From: Candidatus Bathyarchaeia archaeon
GTDB lineage: Archaea > Thermoproteota > Bathyarchaeia > Bathyarchaeales > Bathycorpusculaceae
Direction: 5' to 3'
DNA: 64,000 nt
Assembly (NCBI GenBank): GCA_049512075.1
Contig: JBEKXL010000003.1
Coordinates: forward strand, 143,688-207,687
The position numbers and the translations under genes are program-made. Position 1 is the stretch's first letter. Every line of letters begins with the position of its first letter. The notes beneath the pieces were generated by a model that saw only the letters and a list, made by a program, of their open reading frames with translations, did no database searches and was not told the origin of the DNA. Shown in pieces: positions 3,085 to 60,230 of the stretch.

Positions 3085-3181
3085 GCGCGCGTGAAGCTTG
3101 TGTCATGAAACCACGTCAGAGAATAATCAAAATACGAGTTCAAAGCGAGTTCCTCTAACGCGCGCGACACTGACCTAGAAC

Positions 3182-4612
3182 CTATGTGATGCTGCGGATG
3201 TTTTCCAGGACACTGCCTAGACGGGAGACGTTCTTTATCGCGGTTCTGACGCGGTAGGGACTTTTAATCAGTCTAGCCATTTGCTTTGAAACAAAAGTTG
3301 GCCGTCGGGCAAAGTGGTAGAAGCCATCATGAATCATCCACCTTATTTCGCTGTAAGGCACTGCGGTGGGATATATCTCCGAAACTGCGATTCCTGTCTC
3401 CCAGTATTCGCCTCCTTTCAGAAGCCCCTTGGCTTCGCATTCGTCCCAGATATCAGTTCCAGGATAAACCCCCAGAATATTGAACTGCGGTACATCTATC
3501 GGAATTCTGTTTGCAAACTCTATCGTGTTTCGGATTTCTTCTCTGGTCTCATTAGGCGCCCCGACGATGAAAGATCCGACTATTATGTCAGCTCCCGCTT
3601 TTCTCGCTGTTCTTACAGCAGTTCTAGATTGTTCAGGCGTTATCCGTTTGTTGTAGTAGTCCAGAATTCTTTGATTGGCGCTTTCGATGCCGAAATAGAG
3701 GACCTTGCAGCCTGCTTTGGCAGTTTCCCAGAACATTTCATAAGAGCCATTGTCGACTCTTCCTTCGCATATCCACTCCATGTCCAGCTTTTCCCTTCTC
3801 ATCTCTCTACAAAGCCTGATGACGTTCTTCGGGTTACCCGTGAAATTGTCATCCACAAAGATGAACTGCTTGTACCCCTCCGAAGCAAGAAAACGCAGTT
3901 CTTCCATAGTATTCTCGACGGATCTGGGTCTCCACCTGTTGTGAGCAAACTGTGTGCAACAACAGAATCGACATCTGTAGACGCAGCCGCGCGAAGAAAC
4001 AACGCTGGTGAACTTTCTCGGAGCTATGTTGGCTCCTGCCATTACTGAGTGGTAGTCTTCGCCGACCAGTGAACGATCTGGAAAAGGAAGGCCGTCCAAA
4101 TCCTTTATCAAAGGACTGTCAGCCGTGGAGGCCACTCCGCCCTCGTTCCTGAAGCTGATTCCGAGAACATCCTTCAACCTTCCCTTGTTCTTGAGACAAT
4201 CCACCAGGTCGACGACTGTTCGTTCTCCTTCTCCACGCACGATGATGTCGACTAAAGGATACTTTCTCAGAACCCTTTCGGGATTGAATGTGGCGTAGTA
4301 GTTTCCGAAAACCACGGTAAGGTTCGGATTTTCCTTTTTGACCTCAGCGCTTATCATCGCGGCGGTACGGCCGGAGGTTGCGAACGTTGAAAAACCAAGA
4401 ATGTCAGGGTTCTCGGCCTTCACCCATTTCGCCGTCTCTTTCACTGTGAGGCCTTTCGCTGCCTGATCGAGCACGGAGACCTCAACACCGTTTTGCTCCA
4501 GCACTGCAGCCAGATACAGGATTCCAAGAGGAGGCCAGGCGCCAAGGGATTTTTTCCTCTCGCGATCATCCAGATCTACGTTCGGACCAGCATTGACGAA
4601 AGAGAACTTCAT
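3182..4612 (-). CDS. B12-binding radical SAM protein
   Basis: PPLGILYLAA, GEGE, SRGCVYRCRFC (CxxxCxxC), FVDDNF, FGIES. Confidence 0.92.
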   Translation of the reverse strand: MKFSFVNAGPNVDLDDRERKKSLGAWPPLGILYLAAVLEQNGVEVSVLDQAAKGLTVKETAKWVKAENPDILGFSTFATSGRTAAMISAEVKKENPNLTVVFGNYYATFNPERVLRKYPLVDIIVRGEGERTVVDLVDCLKNKGRLKDVLGISFRNEGGVASTADSPLIKDLDGLPFPDRSLVGEDYHSVMAGANIAPRKFTSVVSSRGCVYRCRFCCCTQFAHNRWRPRSVENTMEELRFLASEGYKQFIFVDDNFTGNPKNVIRLCREMRREKLDMEWICEGRVDNGSYEMFWETAKAGCKVLYFGIESANQRILDYYNKRITPEQSRTAVRTARKAGADIIVGSFIVGAPNETREEIRNTIEFANRIPIDVPQFNILGVYPGTDIWDECEAKGLLKGGEYWETGIAVSEIYPTAVPYSEIRWMIHDGFYHFARRPTFVSKQMARLIKSPYRVRTAIKNVSRLGSVLENIRSIT

Positions 4613-4694
4613 ACGTCCACCGTATTCCGCCTAAATCTTGGTTCAAGAGTATTTTCATTGATTTCATGTGCGAGCTTCTTCGCAACGGGCGCTC

Positions 4695-5552
4695 CTATCT
4701 CAGACTTTCCATGAGTGCCTGCATGCCGCTTGAAGCAAGAGTCAGCAACTCTAACGTTTTGTACGCGTCTGCCATGCTTTTGGCAGTGTACTCGACTCTT
4801 AAGCCGTCAATTCTCTTGATGCTGGTCAACAGTTCGGCAGCATCCGCAAATTGGCTTGCCAAGAAGTTTATCGCCATCCTCACGGGCTTCTTGGCGACCA
4901 ACAGTCCGGCTTTGTCCTTTTTCTGAGCGGCGACTGCCTTTCTGACAGCTCTTCGCAGCTCCTTTTCAATACTGAGCATGCTCGCACTTTTTGCTGAAAG
5001 CCGGCTCATAGAGGTTTTCAGCGCAACGGTCTCAGCCCATGGCGCGGTTTTCTTGACATCATCCTCCAAGAGCTGGGCTTCACCAGCGACCAAAGCCACG
5101 GGAACGCCTAGCTCTCCGGCAACGTACGCGTTGAGGAGGAATTCACTAGCGGCTATTCCGTTTACTTCCACGCGGTTTATGCTCGCACCGCTGTAAGTGT
5201 GGTCAAACGTTGACTTTGCAGTGCCGAATTTGGCGTGGTACCCAAGAAACATCGCTGTTTTGCAACCTTCTATCCCTGAGACCATGCTTAGCGGGCGAGG
5301 AAAACCTCTCACGATCTCGACATACTCGGGCAAGTCGTCGATTAGAAGGTTAACCATAGGCCCGTGACTATCTGCAATGATGACTTTGTCAAAACCGTTT
5401 TTGCTCAGCTCATCAGCCGCAATCAACGTGATTCTGGTGGCGATTCTCCTTGCCTCTTCATACAACGGGCCCTTCAGATTCAAGTGACCCGGGATGACGA
5501 TGTAAGGCATGCCTTCGAGATCAACGGAAATGAAAGCCTTCATAGAAGCCAC
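4695..5552 (-). CDS. M55 family D-aminopeptidase (DppA-like)
   Basis: ISVDLEG, ADSHG, FLGYHAK, FDHTY motifs. Confidence 0.92.
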   Translation of the reverse strand: MASMKAFISVDLEGMPYIVIPGHLNLKGPLYEEARRIATRITLIAADELSKNGFDKVIIADSHGPMVNLLIDDLPEYVEIVRGFPRPLSMVSGIEGCKTAMFLGYHAKFGTAKSTFDHTYSGASINRVEVNGIAASEFLLNAYVAGELGVPVALVAGEAQLLEDDVKKTAPWAETVALKTSMSRLSAKSASMLSIEKELRRAVRKAVAAQKKDKAGLLVAKKPVRMAINFLASQFADAAELLTSIKRIDGLRVEYTAKSMADAYKTLELLTLASSGMQALMESLR

Positions 5553-5726
5553 TCATTACAGTTGTATAAGAATGTGATTTAAGAATTACTGTTCTCCGAC
5601 AGCTCTTGCGATTGCGGACTTTCGAACACTCAGACGGCGGAAGCAGTTTGTCAAACCTGCAAAAAGATTCTTTTTTATATAAGCAGTGTGCGTAATAAAT
5701 TCGGAGTATGCTGTGAAGGGATTTCG

Positions 5727-6155
5727 ATGGCAGGAATGTTGTCAGTTAGAGAAGTGATGACGCGCGATGTTAAGGTCGTAAGAGAAGACACGAGCATGCA
5801 AGAAGTAATTGCAACCATGATGAAGTTTGACATAAGTAGCGTGGTTGTTGTCCAGAAGGAGAGGCCTATTGGACTGATAACTCATAAGGACATATTGACC
5901 AGAGTGCTTCAGCCAGAGCTCCTTCCCGCCACTTTGACCGCGAGAAACGTGATGTCGGCTAGCCTCGTCACCATAGGAGAAGAAGCCAGTCTGGAAGAGG
6001 CAGCAAGACTTATGGTCAGAAAGGGCTTCAAGAAGCTGCTAGTAGTGCAAGACGGCAAGCTCGTCGGAATTATCACAAGCATGGATATTGCCAGAGAAGA
6101 GCCTAAACTAACAAAGCTCTTTGAGGAATTGCTGAAATACTGCCCAAAACGCTGA
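5727..6155 (+). CDS. CBS domain pair protein
   Basis: Two CBS repeats (VREVMT...IGLIT..DI; VMS...LVGIITSMDI). Confidence 0.9.
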   Translation: MAGMLSVREVMTRDVKVVREDTSMQEVIATMMKFDISSVVVVQKERPIGLITHKDILTRVLQPELLPATLTARNVMSASLVTIGEEASLEEAARLMVRKGFKKLLVVQDGKLVGIITSMDIAREEPKLTKLFEELLKYCPKR

Positions 6156-6373
6156 CAACGAAATTCAAGGTTCGGCGACAAGCAATTAACAAGAATATCG
6201 ACAGTGCGCCCTGACGGCTCGTTAGGCCAACTGGACTTGATCATCCATCCACATGCCCATCTATTTCTATAGGCTCCTGTTGTAACATAGCATTAACTGA
6301 CATTATAACGAGGAGCGGGCCACCTTTGACGGGCGCGCGCTCAACTCCATGCCCTATGAAGTTGACGCAGGCT

Positions 6374-7822
6374 TCACTCAGTTGAAAGGCCATAATGTTC
6401 TTCGATCATGTGATGGTACTGATCTACTGGCATGCTGGAGGCAACCGCTCTTTGCACAACTTCGCTTAGGGAGGGGTGAATGTGCATTCCTTCGACTATT
6501 GGCTCTGCACTCTGGGTAGGCGTGTACATGAGGTTTATTATCTCCTGGATAAGGACAGAGGCGTATGGTCCGATGATGTGTGCACCCAGGATCTTCGTTG
6601 TAGTCGACTCCATTATGACCTTGACGAAAAAGTCTTTCACACCCATGGCCAATCCCTTGGCAGTGTCTTCGTAGCGTTGGATTCCAATCAGAACGTTGCT
6701 CTTGCCATACTTTTCTATCGCTTCTGTCTCTTTGAGTCCAACGCTGGCAATTTCCGGATAGGTGAAGACGGCGTTCGGCACCGCGTGATAGTCGACTTTG
6801 ATTCGTTTCTTCTGCACAGCATTGTAGTACACGAGCAATGCTTCGTAGTTCGCCACGTGCTTGAAGAGGTATTTGCCGTCGGCATCCCCAAAGGCCCAAA
6901 CGTTTGGCTGCGACGTTTCCAAATATTCATTGACAATTATCCATCCCTTTTCGTCTGTTCTTATTCCAGCCCTTTCCGGATGAAGTATGTCCGTGTTTGG
7001 TGCCCTTCCTGAAGCGATCAATATTTCTTCAGCGGCTACCTCTGCTTCTTTCCCACTCTCTCTGTTGACAGCAACTAGTTTTTTCCTTCCAGCTGAAGTG
7101 TTCTCGACGCTGCGAACCTCATGGTTGGTCATTATCGTGATGTGCTTCTGCAGCTCTCTCTTTGCCAGTGCCGACACTTCGGGCTCTTCTTCTGGAATGA
7201 ACTGCCGATTTCTGCCGATAACAGTGACTTTCGACCCCATGGCAGAAAAGAAATGGCCGTATTCTGCTGCGATGTATCCTCCGCCGATGATTGCTATACT
7301 CTGGGGGAGGCTGTCCATTTTGAGGATGGTGTCGCTTGTATGATATTTGATGTTTTCTAGGCCTTTTATTGCTGGGATTAGCGGTTTTGATCCAGTGCAC
7401 AAAAAAATCATTTCTGACTTTATGGTTTCCTTTCCAACCTTCATAGTGTATGGTGCGACGAATTCGGCCACGCTGTTGTAGTAATCCAAGTTTTTGGTGT
7501 GGGTGAGCCCTTGCTTCATCGCGTTTATGTCTACATGAATCAGTTTTCTCATTCTCTCCATAACTGCTCGGAAATCCACGTTTTTCATGTCCACGGATAT
7601 TCCAAACTCCTTGGCCCTTTCAATTGTCCTCACCATCTCGGCGGGGTACAGCAGGATTTTGGAGGGAATACAGCCTCGCGTCAGGCATATTCCGCCAGGC
7701 TCGTCCTTGTCTATCACCGCAACCTTAAGGTCAGGGGTTTCTTGTTCCATAGCATTCACGATTTCCAGGGCAGATCCCGAGCCTATGACGATGAGATCGT
7801 ATTCCTTCACTTCAATCACCAC
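6374..7822 (-). CDS. Dihydrolipoyl dehydrogenase / mycothione reductase-like flavoprotein
   Basis: IGSGS, GGICLTRGCIPSK redox disulfide, GGGYIAAE, HPSLSE. Confidence 0.9.
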   Translation of the reverse strand: MVIEVKEYDLIVIGSGSALEIVNAMEQETPDLKVAVIDKDEPGGICLTRGCIPSKILLYPAEMVRTIERAKEFGISVDMKNVDFRAVMERMRKLIHVDINAMKQGLTHTKNLDYYNSVAEFVAPYTMKVGKETIKSEMIFLCTGSKPLIPAIKGLENIKYHTSDTILKMDSLPQSIAIIGGGYIAAEYGHFFSAMGSKVTVIGRNRQFIPEEEPEVSALAKRELQKHITIMTNHEVRSVENTSAGRKKLVAVNRESGKEAEVAAEEILIASGRAPNTDILHPERAGIRTDEKGWIIVNEYLETSQPNVWAFGDADGKYLFKHVANYEALLVYYNAVQKKRIKVDYHAVPNAVFTYPEIASVGLKETEAIEKYGKSNVLIGIQRYEDTAKGLAMGVKDFFVKVIMESTTTKILGAHIIGPYASVLIQEIINLMYTPTQSAEPIVEGMHIHPSLSEVVQRAVASSMPVDQYHHMIEEHYGLSTE

Positions 7823-8060
7823 GAGCTTGTTTGGAGATTAGGAGTGAAAAATGTAATAAATGTGATTGTTGAACGCGCAACCCGCGCTTTCATTGCGTGC
7901 TCTTTACAACCGGGACCGGAACTGGCCCTGCACCACTGATTCTCAGTATTGATTTTGACTTCATAAGCGCTTTATCAAGAAAACCAGCATTAACGCACAG
8001 GCTCTCACGCTTCGATGTGAGAGCCCAATTTGTAACAGCAACAGTCAAGAGGACATTAAA

Positions 8061-8516
8061 GTGATTGTCAAAAACAGTTCAAAATACCCTTCCGACCAGG
8101 TTGAAAACCTCGTGAAATTCGCTCTGAAGAACGTTCCACATTCCGAAGAATTGGAAGTGCATGTGAAAAATAGCAAACACGCATTCTACGGACGAATCTT
8201 CGCAAGCGCAGAGGATTGTACATGCGACTGCAACGGCCAACGCTTCCTAATTGTAGTCAGGATAGGCAGGGCGAAACACTTCCCGTACCTTTCCGTCTAT
8301 CCGGACCACAAACGGTGCCAAAAGTACGCGGTAATGTTGAACGACTGGAAGGAAGCACTCGTGAAAGTCACGGCGCATGAAGGAATGCACCTGAGACAAT
8401 GGATAGAGAAGAAACCCATGTGGGAACACCAGGCAGAAAGGCACGCAATAATGATTCTGGGCAAGTACCGAGACACTGTCGTCGCTTGTGCGCCGCTACT
8501 GAGTCCCATTGACTAG
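8061..8516 (+). CDS. Hypothetical protein with HExxH motif (zincin-like)
   Basis: VTAHEGMHLRQ followed by WEHQAE; GAGG upstream of GTG. Confidence 0.6.
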   Translation: MIVKNSSKYPSDQVENLVKFALKNVPHSEELEVHVKNSKHAFYGRIFASAEDCTCDCNGQRFLIVVRIGRAKHFPYLSVYPDHKRCQKYAVMLNDWKEALVKVTAHEGMHLRQWIEKKPMWEHQAERHAIMILGKYRDTVVACAPLLSPID

Positions 8517-8842
8517 ATAGGCGATCTTAGCGCGCATGTGTGTTCCTAGGTTCGATGTTTGAGTGTGATGAGGATGAGCAGCGTTCTTGTGTTGCGTGAT
8601 TTGTGTGCGCGCGCAACGGGTGTAGGCCCCTCTATTTGAAGTTAAATATGACTTCTCGGTTCTGGGTGTGCGGCAGTGTGGATGGGTGGTCCTAAACTGG
8701 TGTAAAACGCTTTTTGTTCTTCTCTTGCCTGTTTGCGATTGATATGGCTTGTTTGAGGGGCAAATCTTGCGCGCGCTGTTAATCCAAGTATGCTGAAACA
8801 CCTTTTGCATCATAGCCCAGCAAAGTCGCTCCCCTTTTTCAC

Positions 8843-8960
8843 TTGTAATGTCAGATGTAATGTGTACTGTTACAAACCATGGAGAAAATCAGGCTGGACT
8901 ACTGTTCAGAGTGGACTCGGCCCTTTTATTTGTAATGTCAGATGTAATTTTCAATGTAAT
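8843..8960 (+). repeat. Duplicated TTGTAATGTCAGATGTAAT with TGTAAT hexamers at 12-bp period
   Basis: 19-mer at 8843 and 8930; TGTAAT at 8844, 8856, (TGTTAC 8868), 8931, 8943, 8955. Confidence 0.85.
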
Positions 8961-9182
8961 AGACAGGGACGGTAGTGTTGCCCGCGGTACAAAGCCAGAA
9001 CGGTTAGGTCTGGCAGGCTTACTTCGCCGTTGCCGTCTATGTCGCGCGCGCTGGTCATTAAACAGAAAAATAGCGTTTGAGGCGTGTGCTCTATGCTTTG
9101 CCGATTGCCTCCTTTGTGCAAGGTTTATTACTTCAATCACGAGTAACCAATAAGCCGTTGGCGATCTGAAGGAAGGCTGCAT

Positions 9183-10475
9183 ATGCGTACGTACGTTCAC
9201 CGTCTGCCCGGCATCGTTTTAACTGGCCATGAATTCAATGTGCCCTTTGATCACAGGCAGCCCGATGGCGAGATGATAAGCATCTTTGGACGCGAAGTGG
9301 TTGCGAGTGACAAGGAAAAGAGCGATTTGCCGTGGCTTGTCTTCTTTCAAGGTGGTCCCGGTATGGAAGCGCCGCGTCCTGAAAACAGCAGTGGCTGGCT
9401 GAAAAGAGCACTGCAAGAGTATCGTGTGTTTCTGCTTGATCAACGCGGGACAGGCCGCAGCACGCCCGTCAACTATCAGACGTTGGCGCGGTTCGCCACT
9501 GCTAGAGAGCAGGCTGAATACCTGAAGAATTTTCGCGCTGATTCAATCGTGCGAGACGCTGAATTGATTCGACGCGAATTGCTCGGAGAGGGTGGCCGCT
9601 GGAGTGTGCTGGGGCAGAGCTACGGGGGCTTCTGCGTGACGCATTATCTGTCCGTCGCGCCAGATGGACTGAAGGAGGCGATTATGACTGGTGGATTACC
9701 GCCGTTGAATCGGCCGCCCGACGACGTTTATCGCGCCACTTATCAGCGCGTCATTGACAAGAACAGACTTTACTACGAACGTTACCCCGATGACATCGGA
9801 CGTGTGAGAGAAATCGTCGACTATCTAGAGTCGCATGAGGTGAACTTGCCAGGTGGCGATAGACTGTCACCGAGACGGTTTCAGCAACTCGGCATAGCGT
9901 TCGGGATGAACAACGGTTTCGAACAAGTTCACTACCTGCTCGAAAAAGCGTTCCTTCGCGACGCAGCTAATCTGCAGATAAGCTATGCTTTCCTGCGCGG
10001 CTTCGAAAACTCCCTCTCGTTTGAAACCAACCCAATCTACGCGATTCTGCACGAATCACTCTACTGCGAGGAAACCGCCTCCAACTGGTCAGCTGATCGC
10101 GTCCGACAAGAGTGCCCAGAATTTGAGATCACACGTGATCAACCTGTGTACTTCACGGGCGAGATGGTGTATCCATGGATGTTTGACGAGTACAAGTACC
10201 TGCGACCATTGAAAGAGGCGGCGGAGATTTTGGCGACGTACGACGGCTGGCCGAAGCTGTACGATAAATCGGTCTTGCAATCGAACACAGTTCCGTGCGC
10301 AGCCGCCATTTACTACAACGACATGTACGTCGAGCGAACGCTCTCAGAGGAAACCGCAAAGAACATTCGCGGCATCAAGCTATGGGTCACCAGTGAATAC
10401 TATCACAATGGCCTGCGCGCCGATGGTGAAAAAGTGCTGGGCCGCTTACTGGGCATGCTCCATGGAGAAAACTGA
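9183..10475 (+). CDS. Prolyl aminopeptidase (alpha/beta hydrolase)
   Basis: FQGGPG, LDQRGTGRS, GQSYGG nucleophile elbow, YYNDMYV, HNGLR. Confidence 0.92.
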   Translation: MRTYVHRLPGIVLTGHEFNVPFDHRQPDGEMISIFGREVVASDKEKSDLPWLVFFQGGPGMEAPRPENSSGWLKRALQEYRVFLLDQRGTGRSTPVNYQTLARFATAREQAEYLKNFRADSIVRDAELIRRELLGEGGRWSVLGQSYGGFCVTHYLSVAPDGLKEAIMTGGLPPLNRPPDDVYRATYQRVIDKNRLYYERYPDDIGRVREIVDYLESHEVNLPGGDRLSPRRFQQLGIAFGMNNGFEQVHYLLEKAFLRDAANLQISYAFLRGFENSLSFETNPIYAILHESLYCEETASNWSADRVRQECPEFEITRDQPVYFTGEMVYPWMFDEYKYLRPLKEAAEILATYDGWPKLYDKSVLQSNTVPCAAAIYYNDMYVERTLSEETAKNIRGIKLWVTSEYYHNGLRADGEKVLGRLLGMLHGEN

Positions 10476-10735
10476 TACGGCACTCAATTACATCGAAAAA
10501 TATGCAAAGCTGTATCGCGTGGTGACAGAAGCCAACAAGTCGGCCAAACATGTGTGTGAGTAGCGCTTTCAAAGATTGGGCAGACGCGTTGAATGGAGCG
10601 CTCTGACATTTGGGTTAAAGCTTGGCAAGCGCGTGGTGGCTGAATTTCAGTGTTTCAGAAAGAGATAAAATAGGCATGTTATGACGGTATAGTGTTGCCG
10701 AAGCTGTGGCTTGGGAATAAAGGCATGAGTCTGGA

Positions 10736-10996
10736 GTGAGCTGTTTGACTTCATTATTGTGCAGATTGGGGCTACACAAGTGGAAGAATTACGGAGAAGT
10801 TGTGAAGATTAGCTGGAAGGAGCCAGGGTTTGTTCCATCAACCACGGAGAAAATTGAAAAGTTTGTGCACTCGGAGAGGATGTGTTTGCGATGCGGAATA
10901 AAGGAGAGGAGAAGATTCGCTGAAAACCGAGATGGATCTCAAGCAGCAATAGGATGGGAAAGAATAAACAACGGAACACAGAATTCAACACAGTAA
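10736..10996 (+). CDS. Small Cys/His metal-binding protein (DUF1660-like)
   Basis: LLCRLGLHKW ... RMCLRCG. Confidence 0.65.
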   Translation: MSCLTSLLCRLGLHKWKNYGEVVKISWKEPGFVPSTTEKIEKFVHSERMCLRCGIKERRRFAENRDGSQAAIGWERINNGTQNSTQ

Positions 10997-11052
10997 GCGC
11001 GCCTCAAAGATGCACACGTATTCTGTACAATAGTCGTGTTTTGCTCCTCTAC

Positions 11053-11253
11053 TTACATGACAGAGTTCCATACGTTCATCGAGTGTGTGGCAGGTTCTAT
11101 GAGCGGCATGAACTCTTCTCTGAATCTTATCATCGCATTGTCTTTTCGCATTCTCGCCCTCCATTTTTCAGCTTCCGCCAGGTCCTTGAACGCCATCATT
11201 TCAACATGCACACCCGACAAGCTATCGAATGCTTGGCGATAGATTCTCCATGA
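11053..11253 (-). pseudogene. 5'-truncated small alpha/beta barrel (NIPSNAP-like) gene fragment
   Basis: SWRIYRQAFDSLSGVHVEMMAFKDLAEAEKW...SMNVWNSVM reads as a C-terminal two thirds; it begins right at the (GC)4 run 11254-11261. Confidence 0.5.
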
Positions 11254-11325
11254 GCGCGCGCTCCGTTCCAAGTCATATTAATGATTTAATCAAGTTGTAT
11301 CAATGATTTAAGCGTCCGCTATCAG

Positions 11326-12633
11326 GTGAGCGAGAAGCCAAAGAAAAGAGAGTTAAGATTCAAATACAGGAAAACCCACTTTTTTCGGCAATCGGAGAGG
11401 CTAGCGTTGTTCAACGAGTACAGAGATATGCCGAAGGAGGCAAAGTACCTGATATACTCGTCGATATTTCCCTCCCTCGCATACGGGATGTTCTACACTG
11501 ACCTATCATATTTTCTCACTACGGTTCAGGGGCTGTCCTACGAGTTGATGGGAACCGTGATAACCCTAATGGGAGTGTCTACGGTCATAGCCAGCATCCC
11601 GCTGGGAATAGCCGCCGACAAATACGGAAGAAAAAGATTCCTAGTACTGGGCAACGTGCTCGCGAGCAGCATAATCGCAGTTTTCGCTTTAACTACAAAC
11701 CCTGCGTTGCTCGTGCTCGCTGCGATCGTTGAGGGAGTTTCTGAAGCGTCTTTTTCGGCTTCAACAAATGCTCTGCTTGCGGAGAAAGCTGGAGATACAA
11801 GGAGGAACAGCGCCTTCTCCCTAGCTGGCTTCGCGCAGGGTATAGCCTTCGGCGTGGGGAGTTTCATGATACCAGTTGTTGTGATATTCTCTGCATTCGG
11901 GCTTACGAGTGGGGAAAGCCACGTTCTGCTTTACGTAATACTGGCTGCCATCAGTCTGGCTTCAACGCTCATCATGCTCAAGATCAGCGAGTCGAAAAAT
12001 CTGAAGAAAGCCCACGCAGGCGTGAGGGAACTGCTTCCTAAGAAATCGATACGGGTCTTAATGAAATATGTGTTGACCAGTGCCATAATCGCCTTTGGGG
12101 CGGGCATGGTGGTCCCGCTGATGGCCGCTTGGCTTAAGGCTCAGTACGGTATTTCAGACGCGATAAGCGGTCCTATTCTGGGAGTTTCAAACATAGTGAT
12201 TGGAGTAGCAACTTTGGCCGCGCCTCCGCTTGCCAGAAGAATCGGCATCGTCAAAGCCATCGTCGCAACCCAAGCATTCTCAACTATATTCATGTTTGCC
12301 ACGCCATTATTCCCTGATTATGTCTCAGCCAGCGTGGTCTACACTTCCAGAAGCTTCCTGATGAACATGGCAAGCCCGCTTCAGCAGTCCATGATAATGG
12401 GACTAGTGGCAGAAGACGAGCGAGGCGCAGCCTCTGGAGTAAGCGCTGCCCTGTGGAGGTTGCCCAACGCCTTAAGCAGTTTCATCGGCGCCTATCTGAT
12501 TGGCATAGGGCTATTAGCAGCGCCCTTCTTCCTGGCTGCCGTCTTGTACATTGTTTCAATCGCGCTGTTCTGGTACTACTTCCGGAACACAAGAATGCCA
12601 GAAGAGGAGACTACCAAAAACGTTGCTAATTAG
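11326..12633 (+). CDS. MFS transporter
   Basis: GIAADKYGRKR motif A, about 12 TM helices. Confidence 0.92.
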   Translation: MSEKPKKRELRFKYRKTHFFRQSERLALFNEYRDMPKEAKYLIYSSIFPSLAYGMFYTDLSYFLTTVQGLSYELMGTVITLMGVSTVIASIPLGIAADKYGRKRFLVLGNVLASSIIAVFALTTNPALLVLAAIVEGVSEASFSASTNALLAEKAGDTRRNSAFSLAGFAQGIAFGVGSFMIPVVVIFSAFGLTSGESHVLLYVILAAISLASTLIMLKISESKNLKKAHAGVRELLPKKSIRVLMKYVLTSAIIAFGAGMVVPLMAAWLKAQYGISDAISGPILGVSNIVIGVATLAAPPLARRIGIVKAIVATQAFSTIFMFATPLFPDYVSASVVYTSRSFLMNMASPLQQSMIMGLVAEDERGAASGVSAALWRLPNALSSFIGAYLIGIGLLAAPFFLAAVLYIVSIALFWYYFRNTRMPEEETTKNVAN

Positions 12634-21002: not shown

Positions 21003-21063
21003 TTTTTAGGATTCCACCTCTCGGAAACTCAGGGTAGTTTTTGCGGCGGCTTCGATTTTTGAC

Positions 21064-21225
21064 GCGCGCTAGCGTGTTCCTAAATTCCCTTTTTTGGGCG
21101 TGACGAGTTGGTCCATGTCCTACAGACGATACTTCTCGCATCAATAGTCACACGGTCATCCTCGAACCAAGCGAGCCTGTAACAAAAACCAGCTCGCGAA
21201 TGAATTTAGGAACAGGCATGCGCGC
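21064..21225. mobile_element. MITE-like element, copy A
   Basis: Perfect 13-bp inverted repeat TGTTCCTAAATTC (21075-21087 / 21202-21214), each 5 bp inside a GCGCGC; homologous to 61250-61406. Confidence 0.7.
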
Positions 21226-21536
21226 TAGCTTGCCGAAGCCTTCCTTTTGGTAAATTGTTTTGGTGGGTTAATAGCATTTTCCAATGCCTCTTTCAGCAAT
21301 TTTTCAAAGTCTTTTAGATCTTGATCTGTAGACCCAGAAGTATCTGCACCATTACCAGCTTTGCTAGATTTGTCTTCTTGTTTACCTGATTCTTCGCCTT
21401 CACCTTTTTCTCCTAGTTCTTCTTTCCCCTCTTTCCCTTCTTCTTCTGACTCTGATTCTGTTTCTTCACCAGATTCCTCTTCTGACTCGTCGTCAGTTTC
21501 TTCTCCTTCATCTCCATCGCCTCCTTCATCTTCAGC
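21225..21536 (-). pseudogene. Start-less fragment of a highly acidic protein
   Basis: Open frame AEDEGGDGDEGEETDDESEEE...DFEKLLKEALENAINPPKQFTKRKASAS*; no start codon; GC runs at both ends. Confidence 0.65.
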
Positions 21537-21569
21537 GCGCGCGCATGCTCAGATTTATTGGAATTGTTT

Positions 21570-41081: not shown

Positions 41082-41235
41082 GACTCAGGCTGACTATGGT
41101 TCAGTTGTCTGCTGGAAAGGCGAAAAAAACGCCGTTTGGAATCAAAACTGTATTATATTAGGACGTAGGCAAATCAAAACATTAACAGCAATGCCTATAT
41201 CGTCCGAGCGACATTGTATTCTTGAGGAATGAAAA

Positions 41236-42453: not shown

Positions 42454-42467
42454 TCTCCTTTTTTTGT

Positions 42468-42932: not shown

Positions 42933-43013
42933 TGTTGACCGTCCCGTGATAATTTGTTCACGATTGCCTTATGTATAATCATATTCACGTTGTTATTCAT
43001 AAACATTGCGTGC

Positions 43014-45020: not shown

Positions 45021-45092
45021 GCTCCCCGATGAGTTGGTGAAAATCCAACGAAACCTGCCGTTATGCACCCAACGGTAGGTCGGAGCGTGCGT
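45012..45092 (+). ncRNA. Type I hammerhead ribozyme (CCGAUGA core variant)
   Basis: Stem I GCTCC/GGAGC; core CCGATGA; stem II GTTGG/CCAAC; GAAA; stem III CCTGCCGTT/AACGGTAGG; GUC cleavage triplet ending at 45081. Confidence 0.85.
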
Positions 45093-45283
45093 GTAAATCG
45101 TCCGCGCATAAGCTCCCAGCTTCGACCAATGGGAGGCTTGCAGGGTAAACGGCTTCCCCTTGCAAGCTTCCAACTCACAGTTGCCTTATGATTGGGGGCA
45201 ACGACCGTCGCTTAAGTGGGACGGCCTACCGGGACCTTGACGCGCCGCGCGCCAGACCCCTCCTAATAACGAGATGATGTAAG

Positions 45284-45457
45284 ATGCCTAAACCTCCACG
45301 CAACGATAAGGTTTTGTATTGGGACAGCGAGCGACACGAATACGTCCTGCTGCCGGCACCGCTTAAGGCACATTGGGGATTGAAGCGGAAACGAATAGCC
45401 CTGGTGCGCGGCAGGGAAAGAGCAGGAATGTGGAAAGATGTCAGAAAAGAAGCCTGA
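45284..45457 (+). CDS. 57-aa basic hypothetical protein (below ORF-track cutoff)
   Basis: Manual translation MPKPPRNDKVLYWDSERHEYVLLPAPLKAHWGLKRKRIALVRGRERAGMWKDVRKEA. Confidence 0.4.
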   Translation: MPKPPRNDKVLYWDSERHEYVLLPAPLKAHWGLKRKRIALVRGRERAGMWKDVRKEA

Positions 45458-45530
45458 TTGGAAGCCTAAGTCACCATCAAGAAAGAAGTGGATGGAAAAC
45501 GGGAAAGACTAAAACGGAGGCGAATGTAAA

Positions 45531-45935
45531 ATGAAGAATGAGGAAACGTTGCTACCTAGAGCCTGTCCATTGTATCTTGAACTGTGTCCTTACGACCTGA
45601 AAAGACTAGGCGAACCAAGACTGGAACAAGGCAGATGCCCAGTGCCAAGCTTGATCACCAAGAACATTGTTGAAGCAGGAGCAAAGGAAGACCCTAAACA
45701 AATGGTTTATGTTACTTGCCCCGAAGTTTATCGACAAAACAAAAACGCTATTGACGACCCAACTCAAGGAATAGGAGGCGTTGTGTGTTATCGTCCTTCC
45801 GATCTTACAACCGACTTCCGCGATTGCCAATTTTACAGCGAGTGGTTTTGCAAGTACAGGGGCAAGAAACCGAAACCGTACAAAGCACCACCTAAGAAAC
45901 AAGAGTTGGTTCATAAGAGCAGGTTAGAGAAATGA
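45531..45935 (+). CDS. Cys-rich hypothetical protein coupled to the ATPase gene
   Basis: GGAGG RBS; seven Cys; stop overlaps the next ATG. Confidence 0.6.
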   Translation: MKNEETLLPRACPLYLELCPYDLKRLGEPRLEQGRCPVPSLITKNIVEAGAKEDPKQMVYVTCPEVYRQNKNAIDDPTQGIGGVVCYRPSDLTTDFRDCQFYSEWFCKYRGKKPKPYKAPPKKQELVHKSRLEK

Positions 45936-47290
45936 AGCGTTTTACTGATAAAGACTTCGCGCGCGCCATAGTAGTTTATCGAGAAGTCGCTATGGCAAAG
46001 AAGAGAGTCAAACGAACGCCAGGCGAGCTGATTAACAAAACCCTTTTTGAACAGGTCGAAGACGGCAAATATCTAGGCGTTGACCTCTCCGAGTTACAGT
46101 TTATCACAGGCAAGGAAGGGCCGCTAACCAAGTGGGAGACTGATGACCTTGACTACCTTCCCCTCCCGCGCCTTCCATGGCGAAGGCTTCACCCACTCTG
46201 CATAACGGAAGAAAGTGCGGAACAACTCTACACAGATGTTAGGCGTTTCATCTACGACCACATCGACTTCTCCAAAGACGTTGAATACGACCTCTGCGCT
46301 TCATGGGTTCTGCACACTTGGAGATTGGAAAACTGGAACGTCACACCCTACCTGTCCTTCTTTGGCCCACCAGCAAGCGGCAAGACGTGGGCGATGGAAG
46401 TGTTAGCGGCGTTGTCGTTTAGGTCGCTGTTAGCCGCTATGTCGCCAGCCTCACTCTACTACGCCACGCAAGAATGGCATCCCACCTGCTTCCTTGACGA
46501 GACAGAGATGTATTTGAGAGGGGAAGAGAAGGCCGACATCCTCAACTATCTGAACATGGGCTACCGGCGCGGGCAAGTGGTAATAAGGACAACAGAGGAT
46601 AAGGACGGCTCACGCTCACCTGTAATGTTTGACGTTTTCGGGCCTAAGTGCCTTGCTGGAACCAAAGAACTATTCGACACCTTGAAGTCTCGCAGCTTCA
46701 CTTTTACCATGAGCAGGAAGACGCGCGAGATTAAGATGACAATCGATGAGGACGCCATTCTCCAACTTAGAAACAGGTTGTTCTCGTACAGGGTCAGGCA
46801 GCTAGCGGCAAACAGAAATCTCATTCTGTCCGCTGACACTTTCCTAAACCAAATCAGAGACGGCAGACTACGAGAGTTGTTTCACCCGCTAATCTCCTGC
46901 TGCCCTCAATCTGTTATTCCCCTGCTTGTCGAATATGCCGTACAACTAGACACCGAGAAAGAGCAGGAGGAAGCTCTAAGTTTGGAAGCGAGGGTTTTCA
47001 ATGCTGTTCTAAAGGCTCGGCAACTCAACGAAGACTTTATTCCGCTAAAGGCCGTTGCTGAAATTGTGAACGAGAACCTCCCACTGAAGGAAGGTTTTAG
47101 CAATCGCGCCATAGGCACATACGTTGCAAAACTAGGCTTCAAGAAACAAATCCATAAGAACCGTGCGCACGTTGTCTGGGACGAGAAACTCATCACTCGC
47201 CTTGCCAAACGCTATCCAATCGACAAAGCAGATGATAGCCCTCCTGAACCTGAACCGTACGACCATTACGCTCACCCTCCTCAGACGTGA
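45932..47290 (+). CDS. P-loop ATPase, putative replicative helicase/Rep (DUF3631-associated type) with C-terminal wHTH
   Basis: WVLHTW, TPYL, GPPASGKT Walker A, CFLDETE Walker B, LNMGYRRG, FGPKCLAG, SR finger. Confidence 0.75.
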   Translation: MKRFTDKDFARAIVVYREVAMAKKRVKRTPGELINKTLFEQVEDGKYLGVDLSELQFITGKEGPLTKWETDDLDYLPLPRLPWRRLHPLCITEESAEQLYTDVRRFIYDHIDFSKDVEYDLCASWVLHTWRLENWNVTPYLSFFGPPASGKTWAMEVLAALSFRSLLAAMSPASLYYATQEWHPTCFLDETEMYLRGEEKADILNYLNMGYRRGQVVIRTTEDKDGSRSPVMFDVFGPKCLAGTKELFDTLKSRSFTFTMSRKTREIKMTIDEDAILQLRNRLFSYRVRQLAANRNLILSADTFLNQIRDGRLRELFHPLISCCPQSVIPLLVEYAVQLDTEKEQEEALSLEARVFNAVLKARQLNEDFIPLKAVAEIVNENLPLKEGFSNRAIGTYVAKLGFKKQIHKNRAHVVWDEKLITRLAKRYPIDKADDSPPEPEPYDHYAHPPQT

Positions 47291-47492
47291 AGACGTGATA
47301 GACGTGGTAGCAGGAACCATACCCCCCTTGCAATACGCGAATACGTGATCATCAAGTGAGTGAGTTTTATAAGATTTTTATTTATCTCTTCAAATCATCC
47401 TTCTTTTGCTGACAGAACAACGGCACAGCAGCAGGGTATATGGTCTCCTGTTCCCCGTCTTTCACGTCTTCGCGTCTCACTAGCGACCAACA

Positions 47493-48182
47493 GCGAACTT
47501 GCCATGCGGGAGTATCCGAAACGTCGAACCTGCAATCTGCCCGATTTCTACCTGCTTTGACAAGTTGATGATGAGTTCGAAGCGAACTGCCAACATCGAA
47601 CTTGGAGTATCCAATGGGCGGCTTTCGAACTTCAATCTGCCCAAAACATCCCTGCTTTACTGCCAATCTCCTCAAATCATCCTTGTTATCTGCCCATTTT
47701 ATCCTTACCGAAGTGTAGGTGTGCTGAACAACAGGAGATGCCCATTTCATCCTTGCATTGGCGTTTGTGGGACGTTTCAGGCAGCAGGATTGAGCGTCGA
47801 ACTGGGACGAATAATGTAAAATACGCCCAAATCGTCCTTGTTTTCGGAAATCGGGCGTGTCAAGCGACTGTAAAAATCTTGGAAGTCGAACCTCAAAACT
47901 CAACCTAACCGCGGTAGGTCGCCGCTGCTTTGTACTTATTGTGCTTTTCCGAAATCCAGTCGAAAAATACACCATCATTTCCCATGCAAGCGTCTAGGCG
48001 TCGAACTGTAGCGGAAAGGGTCGAACTGGGGAGATTTCGAAGCGAACTGGGCGAACTAGGAAAGAATCTGGGAGATTGCTTTTTCATTGTTTCCTGCTGT
48101 CTCCCATGCCATCATCGGATACTCACCTAAAACTCGTCTATCCTCCCCTGCTTGCAGATTTGACTCTCGAACTGGGGAGATT
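47493..48182 (+). repeat. Iteron-like array of CGAAC(T/C) repeats, putative origin
   Basis: 12 co-oriented copies counted; TCGAACTGGGGAGATT identical at 48021 and 48167; TTCGAAGCGAACTG at 47576 and 48036. Confidence 0.7.
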
Positions 48183-48238
48183 AAGGTGTTCAGCAGCGAG
48201 ACATTCACTTTTCCATCAAAATTCCTGCACCTTGCGTT

Positions 48239-48291
48239 CTTTAAATGGTGTCTCCCCTGCTGAAGGTCGAGATCGCTGTTGAACTGTCAAC
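48239..48291 (+). repeat. 53-bp direct repeat, copy 1
   Basis: CTTTAAATGGYGTCTCCCMTGCTGAAGGTCGAGATCGCTGTTGAAYTGTCAAC; three mismatches vs 49358-49410. Confidence 0.9.
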
Positions 48292-48398
48292 TGCTAAAGC
48301 GTCGCCATGCTAGAACGCCATCGACAGTACACCTATCTATGTGCGCGCACTAGGTGCTTTTCAGGTCACAGGCAGCGAGTTCTCAGACGCGTTTCGTA

Positions 48399-49097
48399 TC
48401 AGACTGTTTCTTTGCTTGCCGAAAGACGGAAGTCTATTAATCTCGGAGCAAGTAGGCGAAAGACGTGATAGTCATCTAAATTCTGCTCATGGAAGTTTCT
48501 GGTAATGAAGGTGAATTTTATGAAACCGAATACGAGGTCATTATACCTTTCTCTAAAAGCACTATATGTTTGGTCCAGATATTCGGTCTGTGCACGCGAG
48601 CCAGGAGTTTGAGCAATCGGTTCAATCTTCTTGGTCTTCTCCTTCACAAGCATCGCAAAGTCAGTAACCATTGTCGAATACCTGCCAAACAAGCGCAACA
48701 GTCGAATGAAGACGGGTTTAAATTCGGTTATAGTGTTCTTCTTTTCAAAGAGTTCAAGACTCTTCCGCAATTCTGCATAGTCTTCTTGAACGGTTCTGAA
48801 ATTCTCACGGAACTGAGTTGTCTCGCGTGGCGTGACATCTATGTGAAAATCATTATGCATGTATGCAATTGAATACATGTAGTTATCTCCCATAAACTGT
48901 CCCAATGATTCCACATAGTACCAGAACTCCTTGAGCACATTTTCTGGAACCTCATTCTTCACGGCGGTCTCAGAAACCCGACCCTCCATGTAGTTTATGA
49001 TGCCTTGCCGTGCTATCTCACTCCAATTCACTTCACCAAAATGCTTCATCTTCTCATCCAGTTCGTCGGTTATGTAAAGTGTAATGTTTCTTGCCAT
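48399..49097 (-). CDS. Protein with N-terminal RHH/antitoxin-like domain and helical C-terminus
   Basis: MARNITLYITDELDEKMKHFGEVNWSEIARQGI. Confidence 0.7.
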   Translation of the reverse strand: MARNITLYITDELDEKMKHFGEVNWSEIARQGIINYMEGRVSETAVKNEVPENVLKEFWYYVESLGQFMGDNYMYSIAYMHNDFHIDVTPRETTQFRENFRTVQEDYAELRKSLELFEKKNTITEFKPVFIRLLRLFGRYSTMVTDFAMLVKEKTKKIEPIAQTPGSRAQTEYLDQTYSAFRERYNDLVFGFIKFTFITRNFHEQNLDDYHVFRLLAPRLIDFRLSASKETV

Positions 49098-49224
49098 TGC
49101 TAATCACTGTAAAGAAAGTAAACCCAAATGGTCTTATAAGTGTTGCTGTGGATTATGTGGGTTCTGCAGCTATTAACAGTGGATAAAAGCAAACATATAA
49201 TAGGACGATCAACCCACTGCTACT

Positions 49225-49340
49225 AGGCGCGCACAAATCGGGCTTCAACGGCGACCAGGGTCGTGTTGGCCGCACGGTGTGAGGTCGCTGTTGAGGCAAG
49301 CGATTTGTCTGAGAATAGGTCAACGTGTTATTTTAGTTTT
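49225..49340 (+). ncRNA. Putative hairpin small RNA
   Basis: BRE/TATA-like AAAAGCAAACATATAA at 49185-49200; stems ACAAATCG/CGATTTGT and GCTTCAACGGCGACC/GGTCGCTGTTGAGGC; T-rich tract at about 49328-49341. Confidence 0.5.
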
Positions 49341-49357
49341 TCCTTGCACTCTCACGC

Positions 49358-49410
49358 CTTTAAATGGCGTCTCCCATGCTGAAGGTCGAGATCGCTGTTG
49401 AATTGTCAAC
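49358..49410 (+). repeat. 53-bp direct repeat, copy 2
   Basis: Matches 48239-48291. Confidence 0.9.
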
Positions 49411-49438
49411 AACTCACCGACGTTGCCAACTGCCTGGT

Positions 49439-50395
49439 TCATCTTCTATTGAGAACGTAAGCGAGATACACCGCAATCAGAGGGCCGAAAACTGTTGAAA
49501 ACGCTATGAGGGCAGCGTCTGCGTTGATTTCGCCAGAGTAGAGCAAAAAGACAGGGGCGACGAGGCTGACGGCCGAAATGATGCCGACGACTACCACGTG
49601 TTTGTGAATATCATGCCTTTTGAGGGTTTCAAATATGGGATACTTAAGACTTGGCTTGTCGGTGAAAAGCAGGGTTCCCCGCTTTTGGAAATCTTCAATG
49701 TCACCGTTCATTTGGACTAGTCGGCTCTTGGTCGGCTCGATCAGAAATTGTCCAAACTCCGTGAGCACGAAGAACACCGTGTCCCCCTGCTCCTTCTTGG
49801 TCCTATGTTCAAGAGTATAGATCAGGCGGCTCTCAAACGCCTTCCTGAACTTGTTTAGTTCGCCGCCTATTTCTTCCATCACGACCTTCACGTCACCCAT
49901 CTTCCAATATTCATTCAGGAGCACGTATGTCTCGCGCAGGTATCTGAGACATTGATGCCTCGCTGGCTCCAATCCCTCGTGCACGTACGACGCGAGACTT
50001 GTCCACGCATCGTACACTTTCAGAAATATCTTCTCGTCTGAAGAAAGGTAAAGCTCGTAGAACACTGGAACTCCTTTTGACAATATCATGCGCCGCCCCA
50101 AAAACGAGATGCCAATAGCCCCGAGGAAAAGAAGAATAGTTACGCTGCCCCCAAGTATGGAATTTTTCGAGACGTAAAACACGAAAAACATGGCTGCCAT
50201 GCCGCCGAGCACCAATAAGATCCCCAAATTCTGAACCCTTCTACCCGATCTTGATAGGTCGTTGTAAGTTCTTATGCGTGTTTCAAGTACATCCTTGTGG
50301 TTTTTGAAATAATCCTCCATGGAACGCTCGGGCATCTGCATGTTTAACCATTGTCGGAAACTGCAGATATAATTCTTTTCCTCATAGCGCTTCAC
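49439..50395 (-). CDS. Hypothetical membrane protein (two TM pairs around a helical domain); start uncertain
   Basis: 318-aa ORF with N- and C-terminal hydrophobic hairpins. Confidence 0.65.
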   Translation of the reverse strand: MKRYEEKNYICSFRQWLNMQMPERSMEDYFKNHKDVLETRIRTYNDLSRSGRRVQNLGILLVLGGMAAMFFVFYVSKNSILGGSVTILLFLGAIGISFLGRRMILSKGVPVFYELYLSSDEKIFLKVYDAWTSLASYVHEGLEPARHQCLRYLRETYVLLNEYWKMGDVKVVMEEIGGELNKFRKAFESRLIYTLEHRTKKEQGDTVFFVLTEFGQFLIEPTKSRLVQMNGDIEDFQKRGTLLFTDKPSLKYPIFETLKRHDIHKHVVVVGIISAVSLVAPVFLLYSGEINADAALIAFSTVFGPLIAVYLAYVLNRR

Positions 50396-50519
50396 TGGGC
50401 TGGGTGCATAGAGAAGCGGTCAAACGATATTTTAACTGAGTAAAATGCCGCATACTGGTTTGGTTTGGCACAAGGGTATTATATAAAGCCATAACATATC
50501 CCTAGGGTATAAGTTTGAG

Positions 50520-54778: not shown

Positions 54779-54931
54779 AACACAAACAACCCTTCTTTTT
54801 TCTATTCAATGTCATGCTTAACCAATATGTCGCGCTCAGCTTCGCTTCGCGCTCCAACCGCGCGCGCTAGGTTCGCCTAAAGTTTTAAATTTTGATGGTT
54901 CATAGATTTGTGAATTGGAGGAAACATCATT

Positions 54932-55790: not shown

Positions 55791-55910
55791 ATCGACAGCC
55801 CGCGCGTTCACTCGCACGTTCCAGACGATACGTCACAAACAGCCGAGCGCGCGCTAGAAAAAACTCTTTTATAATGAGATACCACTTTAGTCCATGGAAG
55901 TTGTCTACCG

Positions 55911-56336: not shown

Positions 56337-56467
56337 AACTGATCGCGCGCGCATGATCAAGCCGAAGTTTTGAAGCCCCAAGATCCAAAAGCTGTAAGCC
56401 GAGCCTCTTCTAGACTTCGAAAATTATTAAAGCACTATTACGCATATCATACCTTCTGGGAACATAA

Positions 56468-56560: not shown

Positions 56561-57064
56561 GCCCCAAGAAAGAGCTTTGCAAAACTCTTTTTCTCTTTTT
56601 ACCATAAAGTTGGCTTCTTTGATGAAATGAAAGAAAGACGCGTCAGTTTTGGATATTATTGGCTTCCTCCATTAATGCGAAAGAAATATGTTTTAGCTTG
56701 TTTATTTATCGTTAATTTGTAGCTGAGATTTATGCCGAGTGTAATGAAACGTAAACAAAAGAATACTCAAATCGCACAACAGAAAAAGACAGAACGGGAT
56801 AAAGAAGCGAAAAAGAAACAGTTGAGACAGCAACTTCCTGCCAAGGGCAAGAAACGTTAAAGCCACTAAAGGAGCTATGGTAACCATCTAAAAGCTTATA
56901 CCTAGAAGACAACAATACAGCGCGCGCTGTTCTGGAAAGACCGAATGAACCAAACTGGCGAAATCTTCATTGCAGTTGAGGTATATAGTGGATACATTCA
57001 AAGAAGAACTTGGGCGACAGATTTGCCCGCCTTAGTCGTCTAGAGTGCGATTTGGGTTTACGCC

Positions 57065-58758: not shown

Positions 58759-58900
58759 TATTTCCACCTCTATTTTCGTCAACACAATGTCTTCGAGCTA
58801 ATTAAATGTATGTTGCTCATGGCCACTGCATCAACGCACCTTAGGTTTTCGGGTTCTGATTCGACAGGTCCGCCCCAGCGCCCATACGTGTTCCGCGCGC

Positions 58901-59070
58901 GCTGAGCGCCGTGAACAAGGCTACAGTTCCCGCAATAATCATCGAAACGATAACAGCGGGCCCTGCATAGCCCACAGCAATCCCCAGCACAACGAAAATT
59001 CCCGCACCAATTATCGCTCCAACCCGATTGCCGAAGCGTCCAGAAGATTGAGGGTTCTTTTCAGCTCCAC
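58901..59070 (-). pseudogene. N-terminal fragment of an APC amino-acid permease (frameshifted, truncated)
   Basis: MELKRTLNLLDASAIG/VGAIIGAGIFVVLG...AGPAVIVSMIIAG.VALFTALS, then ends in a (GC)4 run. Confidence 0.85.
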
Positions 59071-59177
59071 TATTTTCCCCTTGACAAATCTGAAAACGTA
59101 GCGCGCGCTAGCATTTTCATCTGTCTTTTGTCAAGTTCGTCTGTCGCGTATACTTAGGGGCAAGCATGAACCGATAA

Positions 59178-60146
59178 TTAGCGCGCGCCAGATGCGAGTT
59201 TCGTTGGCAAGACATCATCACGAGAGTCTGGCGATTTTCGTGTTGTTTCACTCTTGGTTGAGGGTTTTGGTGGTTCTATTCTCACTTTTATTTCCGTCAC
59301 CTCATCGAATTCTTTCTTCACTTGTTCCTCTATCTTTGTCGCTATCTGATCAGCTTCTCTCACCGACATGTCGCCGTCAACTACAACATGCATGTCACCT
59401 ACCAAGTATGGTCCCAGCTTTCGCATACGAATGTCATGCACTTCTCTAACATTCTTGACATCCTTTGCAATGTTTTCTATATCCAACAGTATGTCTGAGC
59501 ATTGACACGCGTCCATTAGGATCAGTGACGATTCTTTTATCACTGAGTATGCCACGGTGAAGACGAAGAAGGCGATTATTATTCCAGCAATGGAATCTGT
59601 CACTCTGATGTTCAAGTATTTGCTCAAGGCTATGCCGACAAAGGCTGTTAAAGAAGTGAGCACATCTTTGGTCGAGTTGAACGCATCTGCCTTGAGCGCT
59701 AAGGAATCATATCTTCTTGCAGCGCGAGCTTTAAAAAATAATATTACCCCTGCTACAGCGGTTGCTAAGAGTGCGGTTGCCATGGCTATCTCTGCGTTGA
59801 CTATCTCTCTGGGAAAAAGCAACCCCTGGTAAGACTCATAAAGGACCAGTCCGCCCGAAACAGTCAAGACGAAAGCGGCGATTATGCTGCTGAAATTCTC
59901 AACTCTGTAATAGCCAAAATGAAATTTGCCATCTGGGGCTTTTCCCGATAATCGCAAACCAACCCAGACGATCAACGAAACAGCGGCATCGGCGAAGGAT
60001 TGGACACCATCAGCGATTAACGCAAGACTCAAGGAGAATATTCCAACGAACACTTCGGCTATGCCCACCAGTACCAGAACCGCAAAAGATTTTTCCGCAA
60101 CTGCTCCGCCTTTGGCAAGTCTGGTTGACTGCAATCTACTAGTCAC
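59178..60146 (-). CDS. CDF family transporter
   Basis: SLALIADGVQSFAD, PDGKFHFGYYRVE, LKADA, RIEP. Confidence 0.9.
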   Translation of the reverse strand: MTSRLQSTRLAKGGAVAEKSFAVLVLVGIAEVFVGIFSLSLALIADGVQSFADAAVSLIVWVGLRLSGKAPDGKFHFGYYRVENFSSIIAAFVLTVSGGLVLYESYQGLLFPREIVNAEIAMATALLATAVAGVILFFKARAARRYDSLALKADAFNSTKDVLTSLTAFVGIALSKYLNIRVTDSIAGIIIAFFVFTVAYSVIKESSLILMDACQCSDILLDIENIAKDVKNVREVHDIRMRKLGPYLVGDMHVVVDGDMSVREADQIATKIEEQVKKEFDEVTEIKVRIEPPKPSTKSETTRKSPDSRDDVLPTKLASGAR

Positions 60147-60230
60147 GTTCCCAAGCTAGTCCTTGATATGGATTATAGCACGCGCTTATAGGGTGTCGGT
60201 ACTGCCGGTTGTCTGGGGCGCGCTAGTTAC

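Follow-up and report, generated by a model that had tools for sequence, protein, structure and literature searches.

GC-run scars at DNA joints in Bathyarchaeia and a putative telomerase-like primase ribonucleoprotein

Telomerase, which consists of TERT plus an RNA, can add repeats de novo at internal breaks. The defence reverse transcriptase DRT2 reportedly has a neighbouring structured non-coding RNA that carries a template. In DRT10, which likewise has such a neighbouring RNA, the template loop varies among homologues and sets the repeat that is made (bioRxiv 10.1101/2025.10.16.682844). Among archaeo-eukaryotic primases (AEPs), two papers describe Saccharolobus PriSL, which carries out microhomology end joining in break repair, terminal transfer and annealing over 2-4 GC pairs (PMC12019639), and the PriS-like domain of PolpTN2, which shows reverse-transcriptase and terminal-transferase activity once its PriL-like part is absent (PMC3973330). 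HIP1 of cyanobacteria is an 8-nt GC-rich palindrome overrepresented more than 20-fold (PMC4390886). Here we analyse a stretch of 64,000 nucleotides (the window, G000:C3:143688-207687) from a genome of Candidatus Bathyarchaeia, labelled G000, whose archaeal origin is supported by genes for TBP, PolB and archaeal RNase P. It is a peat archaeon, and the samples that contain it are mostly peat metagenomes. The window is studded with runs of alternating G and C, which we compare with an extra PriS-like primase family and an RNA element at the end of its gene.

The system that we propose would work like telomerase or DRT10 and is a member of neither. With telomerase it would share an own pseudoknotted RNA, a short single-stranded template, priming by a 3' end over a few base pairs and repeat addition by realignment; covariation in the RNA and the match between its loop and the word found at joints point to a template complementary to the added repeat, and primer-dependent addition would be visible here as a joint footprint alone. 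It differs in having an AEP as its candidate enzyme in place of a catalytic subunit of the reverse transcriptase family, in a palindromic product that would glue two ends where telomerase caps one, and in an RNA that overlaps the end of the enzyme's own gene. DRT2 and DRT10 have a reverse transcriptase fold, make protein-primed free cDNA and serve against phages, whereas the product here would end up at joints within the chromosome, and our candidate is no UG/DRT-type reverse transcriptase. PriSL is a replicative heterodimer that leaves 1-2 bp indels, with neither RNA template nor fixed word (PMC12019639); the single conserved gene and PriL partner that mark it were not found for the extra family. 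PolpTN2 is a plasmid replication enzyme for which no cognate RNA is described (PMC3973330). HIP1 is tied to methyltransferases and a point-mutation model (PMC4390886), whereas the present runs were inserted at joints and avoid genes; in contrast to its occurrence inside genes, 505 of 581 runs are intergenic, and no cognate methyltransferase was found, the C5 family being the one searched. LigD/Ku non-homologous end joining (NHEJ) resembles our proposal in that an AEP-fold polymerase adds bases at breaks, and its operon occurs in G000, but it writes no fixed word and its presence does not follow the runs. We found no description of these scars or of a primase-RNA system in the openly accessible literature.

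GC runs as filler at DNA joints

The runs are very probably new fillers that mark the joints of deletions, insertions and rearrangements. This emerges from comparison with nearly all of a sister genome, G002 (2.33 Mb, about 95% identical), against which 579 runs of G000 were tested. Neither flank could be mapped for 345 of them, one could for 124, both but apart for 12, and both in colinear order for 98. Among these 98, the interval was of equal length in 53, longer in G002 by more than 30 bp in 25, shorter in 15 and slightly longer in 5. Of 200 colinear control sites, displaced from the runs by 300 bp, 195 were unchanged and 5 shorter, and none exceeded its counterpart by over 30 bp in G002; a single mappable flank occurred in only 47 of 573 shifted controls. 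Comparison from G002 to G000 agreed with the forward one. The fillers take the place of 0 to 6.6 kb, and at neither breakpoint does the other genome contain a GC word; some are clean inserts with no loss or few bases lost, and one sits within a transposase gene. A smaller class consists of old runs common to both genomes, with the DNA of one side differing. Most runs were thus made at the joint, and some were reused later. The original prediction had read the runs as scars or substrates of rearrangement, and the dozens of cases in which the sister lacks the run at both breakpoints uphold the scars as well as one of its options, end-joining with GC addition. Another option, a recombinase or transposase target, holds only secondarily, in that an IS5/IS1182-like family enters existing runs; breakage at pre-existing Z-DNA-prone tracts cannot be the origin, since the tracts were absent before the break. 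A templated mechanism was not among the options of that prediction.

The bases at the joints follow a register rule. From 204 joint ends, 49 of which were set aside for flank mismatch, 155 could be used, and in these the last conserved base was followed by a first new base as T to A in 22 of 38, A to G in 24 of 36, G to C in 25 of 30 and C to G in 34 of 51, so that the joints spell TAGCGC in register. The G-to-C and C-to-G parts of the rule are partly circular and the T-to-A and A-to-G parts are not; the non-circular parts gave 15/21 (p=4.5e-5) and 21/24 (p=2.6e-7). Run flanks showed neither inverted symmetry nor a fixed target duplication. Judged from the joint sequences, this rule is the expected leftover of a DNA end that would have formed a single base pair with a fixed template, the complement of TAGCGC.

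The runs are abundant far beyond the window. In G000, GCGCGCGC occurs at 646 sites where about 30 would be expected, and no other 8-mer ranks above it under Markov models of orders 1-4. There are 581 maximal runs of at least 8 nt (284 of 8 nt, 186 of 9, 105 of 10 and 6 longer); 505 of them are intergenic according to our own gene calls, by which 21% of the genome lies between genes. The run at 11254 is bridged by contigs from four independent studies (4/4 sequencing runs), in a check that covered window positions 6000-12000 only, which argues against an assembly artefact. Within the window, all 14 predicted copies of GCGCGCGC and the 12 listed GCGCGC hexamers lie at most 1 nt from where they were placed; the claim that under one copy would be expected agrees with a first-order Markov expectation of 0.8 and a maximum of 4 in 200 simulations of the window, and the core blocks at 22-41 kb and 50.5-53.5 kb are indeed without any run of at least 8 nt. 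Two extra 8-mers of the CGCGCGCG form occur at 3159 and at 60422, the latter inside a conserved gene. The rearrangement process had been called lineage-specific, which proved too narrow: GCGCGCGC sites number 168-460 in four congeners, 0-30 in most other genera of the family and 227 in G018, and about 15 of 151 genomes of the class are run-rich, patchily spread over five families.

An extra primase and the RNA element at its gene end

A relaxed PF01896 search yielded an extra family of PriS-like proteins, with intact genes in G105 and G099, for which 194 homologues were found. The PF01896 match is weak and below the cut-off; by profile the family is PriS-like (E 1.2e-10), its closest solved relatives in a PDB profile search are PriS, and DxD, SGxxGFH, DP and His/Cys residues are invariant, with AEP motifs I-III present. 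Family-specific protein matches occur in 8/15 run-rich genomes vs 5/136 others. At the 8 loci inspected the gene stands alone among GC runs, without integrase or partner, and its distribution is patchy; G000 has a separate replicative PriS and PriL besides. Viral contigs gave one 25% relative and nothing else, and a genome-contig scan with one member protein returned that protein only. An AlphaFold model reached a mean predicted local distance difference test score of 50 and was not used. The inferred writer, gene or RNA, lies outside the window, with pieces on C1 and C14: G000 retains the N-terminal third of the gene only (C1:19464-19784), G002 a C-terminal piece that starts at a GC run, and G004 fragments. 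Another small stand-alone primase, 25% alike, lies between HD-domain-like and RNase HII-like genes, by inspection (L200:1198-1950; G000:C2:173538-174290), and has no RNA-element match.

At the 3' end of the primase gene, 80 metagenome loci carry a conserved element, about 95-155 nt long. In it, a 5' strand pairs with the loop of a 3-bp hairpin; the further parts are a variable hairpin, a word that stays single-stranded and a second pseudoknot. Across 43 sequences and 21 pairs, 96% of cells are paired and 17/21 pairs show compensatory two-sided change, a level reached by 0/500 shuffles and compared with 37-51% in slid controls, the structure having been drawn from the same alignment, which favours the element over the slid controls. 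The constraint is not on coding, because protein C-termini there vary in frame and length. No Rfam match covered the element at E<=1 in 10 loci; its CUGA/GAUGA motif is reminiscent of a kink-turn. G000 has one copy at C14:1839-1964, with the word AGCGCUA and a GC run just before it, and a decayed one at C1:20813-20926, 1 kb behind the gene fragment. RNA matches occur in 7/15 run-rich genomes vs 4 weak ones in the 136 others, and the copies read in G090, G073, G086 and G099 mostly hold GCGCUA. Variants with other loop words (CAUAGCUA, UAUAGCUAGCUA, GGCCGUA and tandem UGCGC) were seen at L271, L287, L293, L266 and L274, and predict other scar words.

The loop word GCGCUA is the complement of the joint word TAGCGC, and in the clade nearest G000 the loop word, (U/A)GCGCUAAG, is the complement of TTAGCGC. 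Among the 58/80 metagenome loci with a classed word, the base before runs was A in 76 and T in 21 cases at GCGCUA loci, and A in 1 and T in 18 at YGCAUA loci; per locus, the A:T tally was 21:1 vs 0:11. AGCGCGC occurred 104 times at GCGCUA loci (12.8 expected) and 3 times at YGCAUA loci (2.8 expected), which show ATGC repeats, while GCGUA loci had A then C in 11/19 ends (2 loci). The T that the RNA predicts at position -3 is enriched (100/231 vs 0.30, p=1.3e-5; in G002 61/166, p=0.04).

Together these patterns suggest, with a probability that we put at roughly two in three, that the runs were written by the stand-alone PriS-like primase-polymerase with the GCGCUA loop of the pseudoknotted RNA as template. 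A broken 3' end would pair with the RNA loop by 1-3 bases; the enzyme would copy towards TAGCGC, and a two-base slip could add another GC; two such self-complementary tails would pair or be joined to give A(GC)3-5T, which host enzymes would then fill and ligate. Any two ends could be glued in this way, which would fix deletions in place and stitch in foreign DNA as well as the cassette of primase and RNA. The IS5/IS1182-like insertion sequence (IS) family later inserts into finished scars. Since the gene is broken in G000, its scars would stem from a copy that has disappeared or is missing from the assembly.

Weighing the explanations

Several observations weigh against this primase-RNA origin. 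No intact gene is present in G000, G002 or G004, the window has no RNA copy (best E 0.67), and gene and RNA were both not found in run-rich G001, G003, G018, G058, G068, G083, G102, G153 and G168, of which G068 is a single contig with 282 sites and 86% completeness; the run-rich class was itself set by eye from site counts. Only 6/581 runs exceed 10 nt, a limit that a 6-nt template does not explain. The C that the RNA predicts at -4 was inconsistent, and the element could act as single-stranded DNA instead. Loop-word classes are clades of the protein tree (a quick tree of 62 rows, each with 200 or more aligned residues), and therefore amount to about three independent contrasts rather than the nominal p=1.7e-9. 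A prospective test failed, as G133 (loop GGCCGUA) had no TACGGCC excess (59/58 vs control 69/52); a 10-mer chosen post hoc had 3 sites in G133, 2 of them on the primase contig, 9 in a genus mate and 0-2 elsewhere. A 7-nt template as cause of the 10-nt limit was dropped because intact RNA copies showed a 6-nt core.

The run-rich genomes without gene or RNA, above all single-contig G068, lend most weight to the notion that a host enzyme (a replicative PriSL variant, PolB or a ligase-associated activity) adds a GC patch dictated by the end base, the cassette being a passenger or having another role. PriS and PolB occur in all five genomes tested, and for PriSL both a terminal transferase activity and a preference for GC pairing are described (PMC12019639). 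We nevertheless consider a host enzyme unlikely, as it leaves unexplained both the exact complementarity of loop and joint word and the switch of the flank between A, T and AC with the loop word, and the spread of the runs is patchy inside one family. Were the RNA instead a guide or donor for cut-and-join at pre-existing GC words, like a bridge RNA and with no templating, one would understand why some runs are breakpoints common to different genomes whose DNA then differs on one side, and why run-bounded repeats move as units; at most derived joints, however, both ancestral breakpoints lack a GC word, and the partner protein is a polymerase-type AEP, so that we hold a guide role to be improbable.

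Elements and miniature inverted-repeat transposable elements (MITEs) of the IS5/IS1182-like family end in (T)AGCGCGC, which raises the question of whether the runs are excision footprints of ends flanked by GCGCGC. There are 146 such ends in G000 and 85 in G002 with the same (T)A flank, and the empty site of one MITE is a 10-nt run. Yet the family was not found in 5/5 run-rich f32 genomes, and is present in 23/35 f24 genomes, though f24 has no AGCGCGCGC excess; its GC..GC ends lie in GCGC words in run-poor genomes too; no fixed target duplication surrounds the runs, one filler lies inside a transposase gene, and 0/59 paired elements had a clean run-free empty site, several having a run at the sister site. 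Excision appears about as improbable as a guide role, if not a shade more so, and G068 already largely refutes it, so that another shared element would have to be invoked; because several sister sites hold runs, GCGC words are used in run-poor genomes and the 5 f32 genomes gave no member of the family, it is the family that targets scars. Elements of this kind with GC..GC ends enter TAGCGCTA-like words at L167 and L173-L184 in G105, a target preference that exploits scars. A patch added by Ku/LigD NHEJ is suggested by the presence of PolDom-Ku-Lig/PE in G000, but Ku occurs in 37/151 genomes and only 3/15 run-rich ones, 34 Ku genomes being run-poor, which makes this highly improbable; Ku/LigD may still seal joints in G000. 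The operon itself (L141, G000:C16:5124-8919) is a complete PolDom-Ku-ligase/phosphoesterase-DUF72-like set in an archaeon. We give equally little credence to a HIP1-like motif spread by methyl-directed point mutation, to Z-DNA breakage or to an assembly artefact: the runs are a highly iterated GC palindrome, but they arise by insertion at joints, avoid genes and occur in independent studies, and no C5 methylase was found in G000 or G068.

Among the candidates tried and rejected, none of Ku, IS5/IS1182 (profile and ends), RVT_1, PolB, DinB, NTP_transf_2 and C5 methylase tracks the runs, the last five having been searched in 5 genomes each. RVT_1 had no match in 5/5 of these, G000 among them, and DinB was rejected as writer, being absent from run-rich G068.

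Runs and neighbours in the window, and what they mean

The features of the window are given here without strand. At 11254..11261 a GCGCGCGC filler stands in place of 146 bp of G002 and has severed the N-terminal part from a small open reading frame (ORF) on the minus strand. The 10-nt run at 21535..21544 lies at the start of an acidic ORF fragment and adjoins a tRNA gene; at the joint at 58894..58902 the left flank runs on without a run in G002 and a truncated permease-like fragment (by inspection) follows on the right. Gene fragments had been said to end at the runs at 11254, 21535 and 58895, and the reading frames are broken there, as judged by translation, with no database search of the fragments. 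The run at 59101..59108 closes the permease-like fragment, and that at 59181..59188 lies in the last codons of a cation-efflux ORF. At 6333..6340 G002 has an IS5/IS1182-like end within the same run, and the run at 56920..56927 is shared with G002 and G004, each of which has different right-hand DNA; it is an old scar that has served again as a breakpoint. The left flanks of the runs at 54859..54867, downstream of an integrase, and at 56344..56352, directly after a stop codon, run on without a run in G004, and the run at 55847..55854 marks an accessory-gene border.

Runs also bound mobile DNA. A dispersed non-coding repeat of about 285 bp (8769..9051; 39 matches in G000) has runs at both ends (8769-8776 and 9043-9051), and a joint that skips it was seen in sequencing run X7 at depth 3.6; it contains ACATTACA-type internal repeats, and many copies are cut at differing points with GC runs at the borders. 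Beside it, 8530..8614 comprises an IS/MITE-type end at 8530 and a run at 8607-8614, and a 162-bp MITE of the IS5/IS1182-like family, with GCGCGC at both ends, lies at 21063..21225 as a secondary user of runs; the hexamers at 8530, 21063 and 21220 are thus IS/MITE ends, and those at 3085, 3159, 10997 and 19163 are common to G000 and its sister. The run at 45958..45966 lies within a 9.3-kb block of unannotated genes (41157-50475), bordered by a 7-bp direct repeat, that G002 lacks at this place. An intron-containing tRNA gene (21573-21711), found by Rfam and missed by ARAGORN, has a partial duplicate 2 kb away (19651-19774), as is typical of an integration site; a 5S rRNA gene lies at 21850-21969. 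The archaeal RNase P RNA gene is followed directly by a tyrosine integrase of a family with 15 members in the genome (53577-54778), and rnpB looks like an integration site because G002 carries 19 kb of other DNA there. Two neighbouring Toprim-domain genes lie beside PolB (33158-35052), and a TnpA-only IS200-type element at 63484-63918, with 11-13 copies, breaks many contigs.

As to what this means, even if the enzyme is left aside, each past joint in these genomes can be dated and counted by its scar. Going beyond the origin of the runs, and with less assurance, we lean towards a selfish telomerase-like primase ribonucleoprotein in Bathyarchaeia that would reverse-transcribe a programmable loop onto any broken end, driving deletion, gene capture and its own spread. 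If true, no RNA-templated end-joining system would have been known before it, the telomerase principle would have been invented independently on the AEP fold, and template-RNA-guided repeat addition would have arisen outside the reverse transcriptases. The written word would be reprogrammable through six RNA letters, and about 270 amino acids with about 120 nt of RNA would offer a compact programmable tool for DNA end-tagging or joining. For this very abundant group of sediment archaea, it would represent an undescribed route of double-strand-break repair and genome shuffling.

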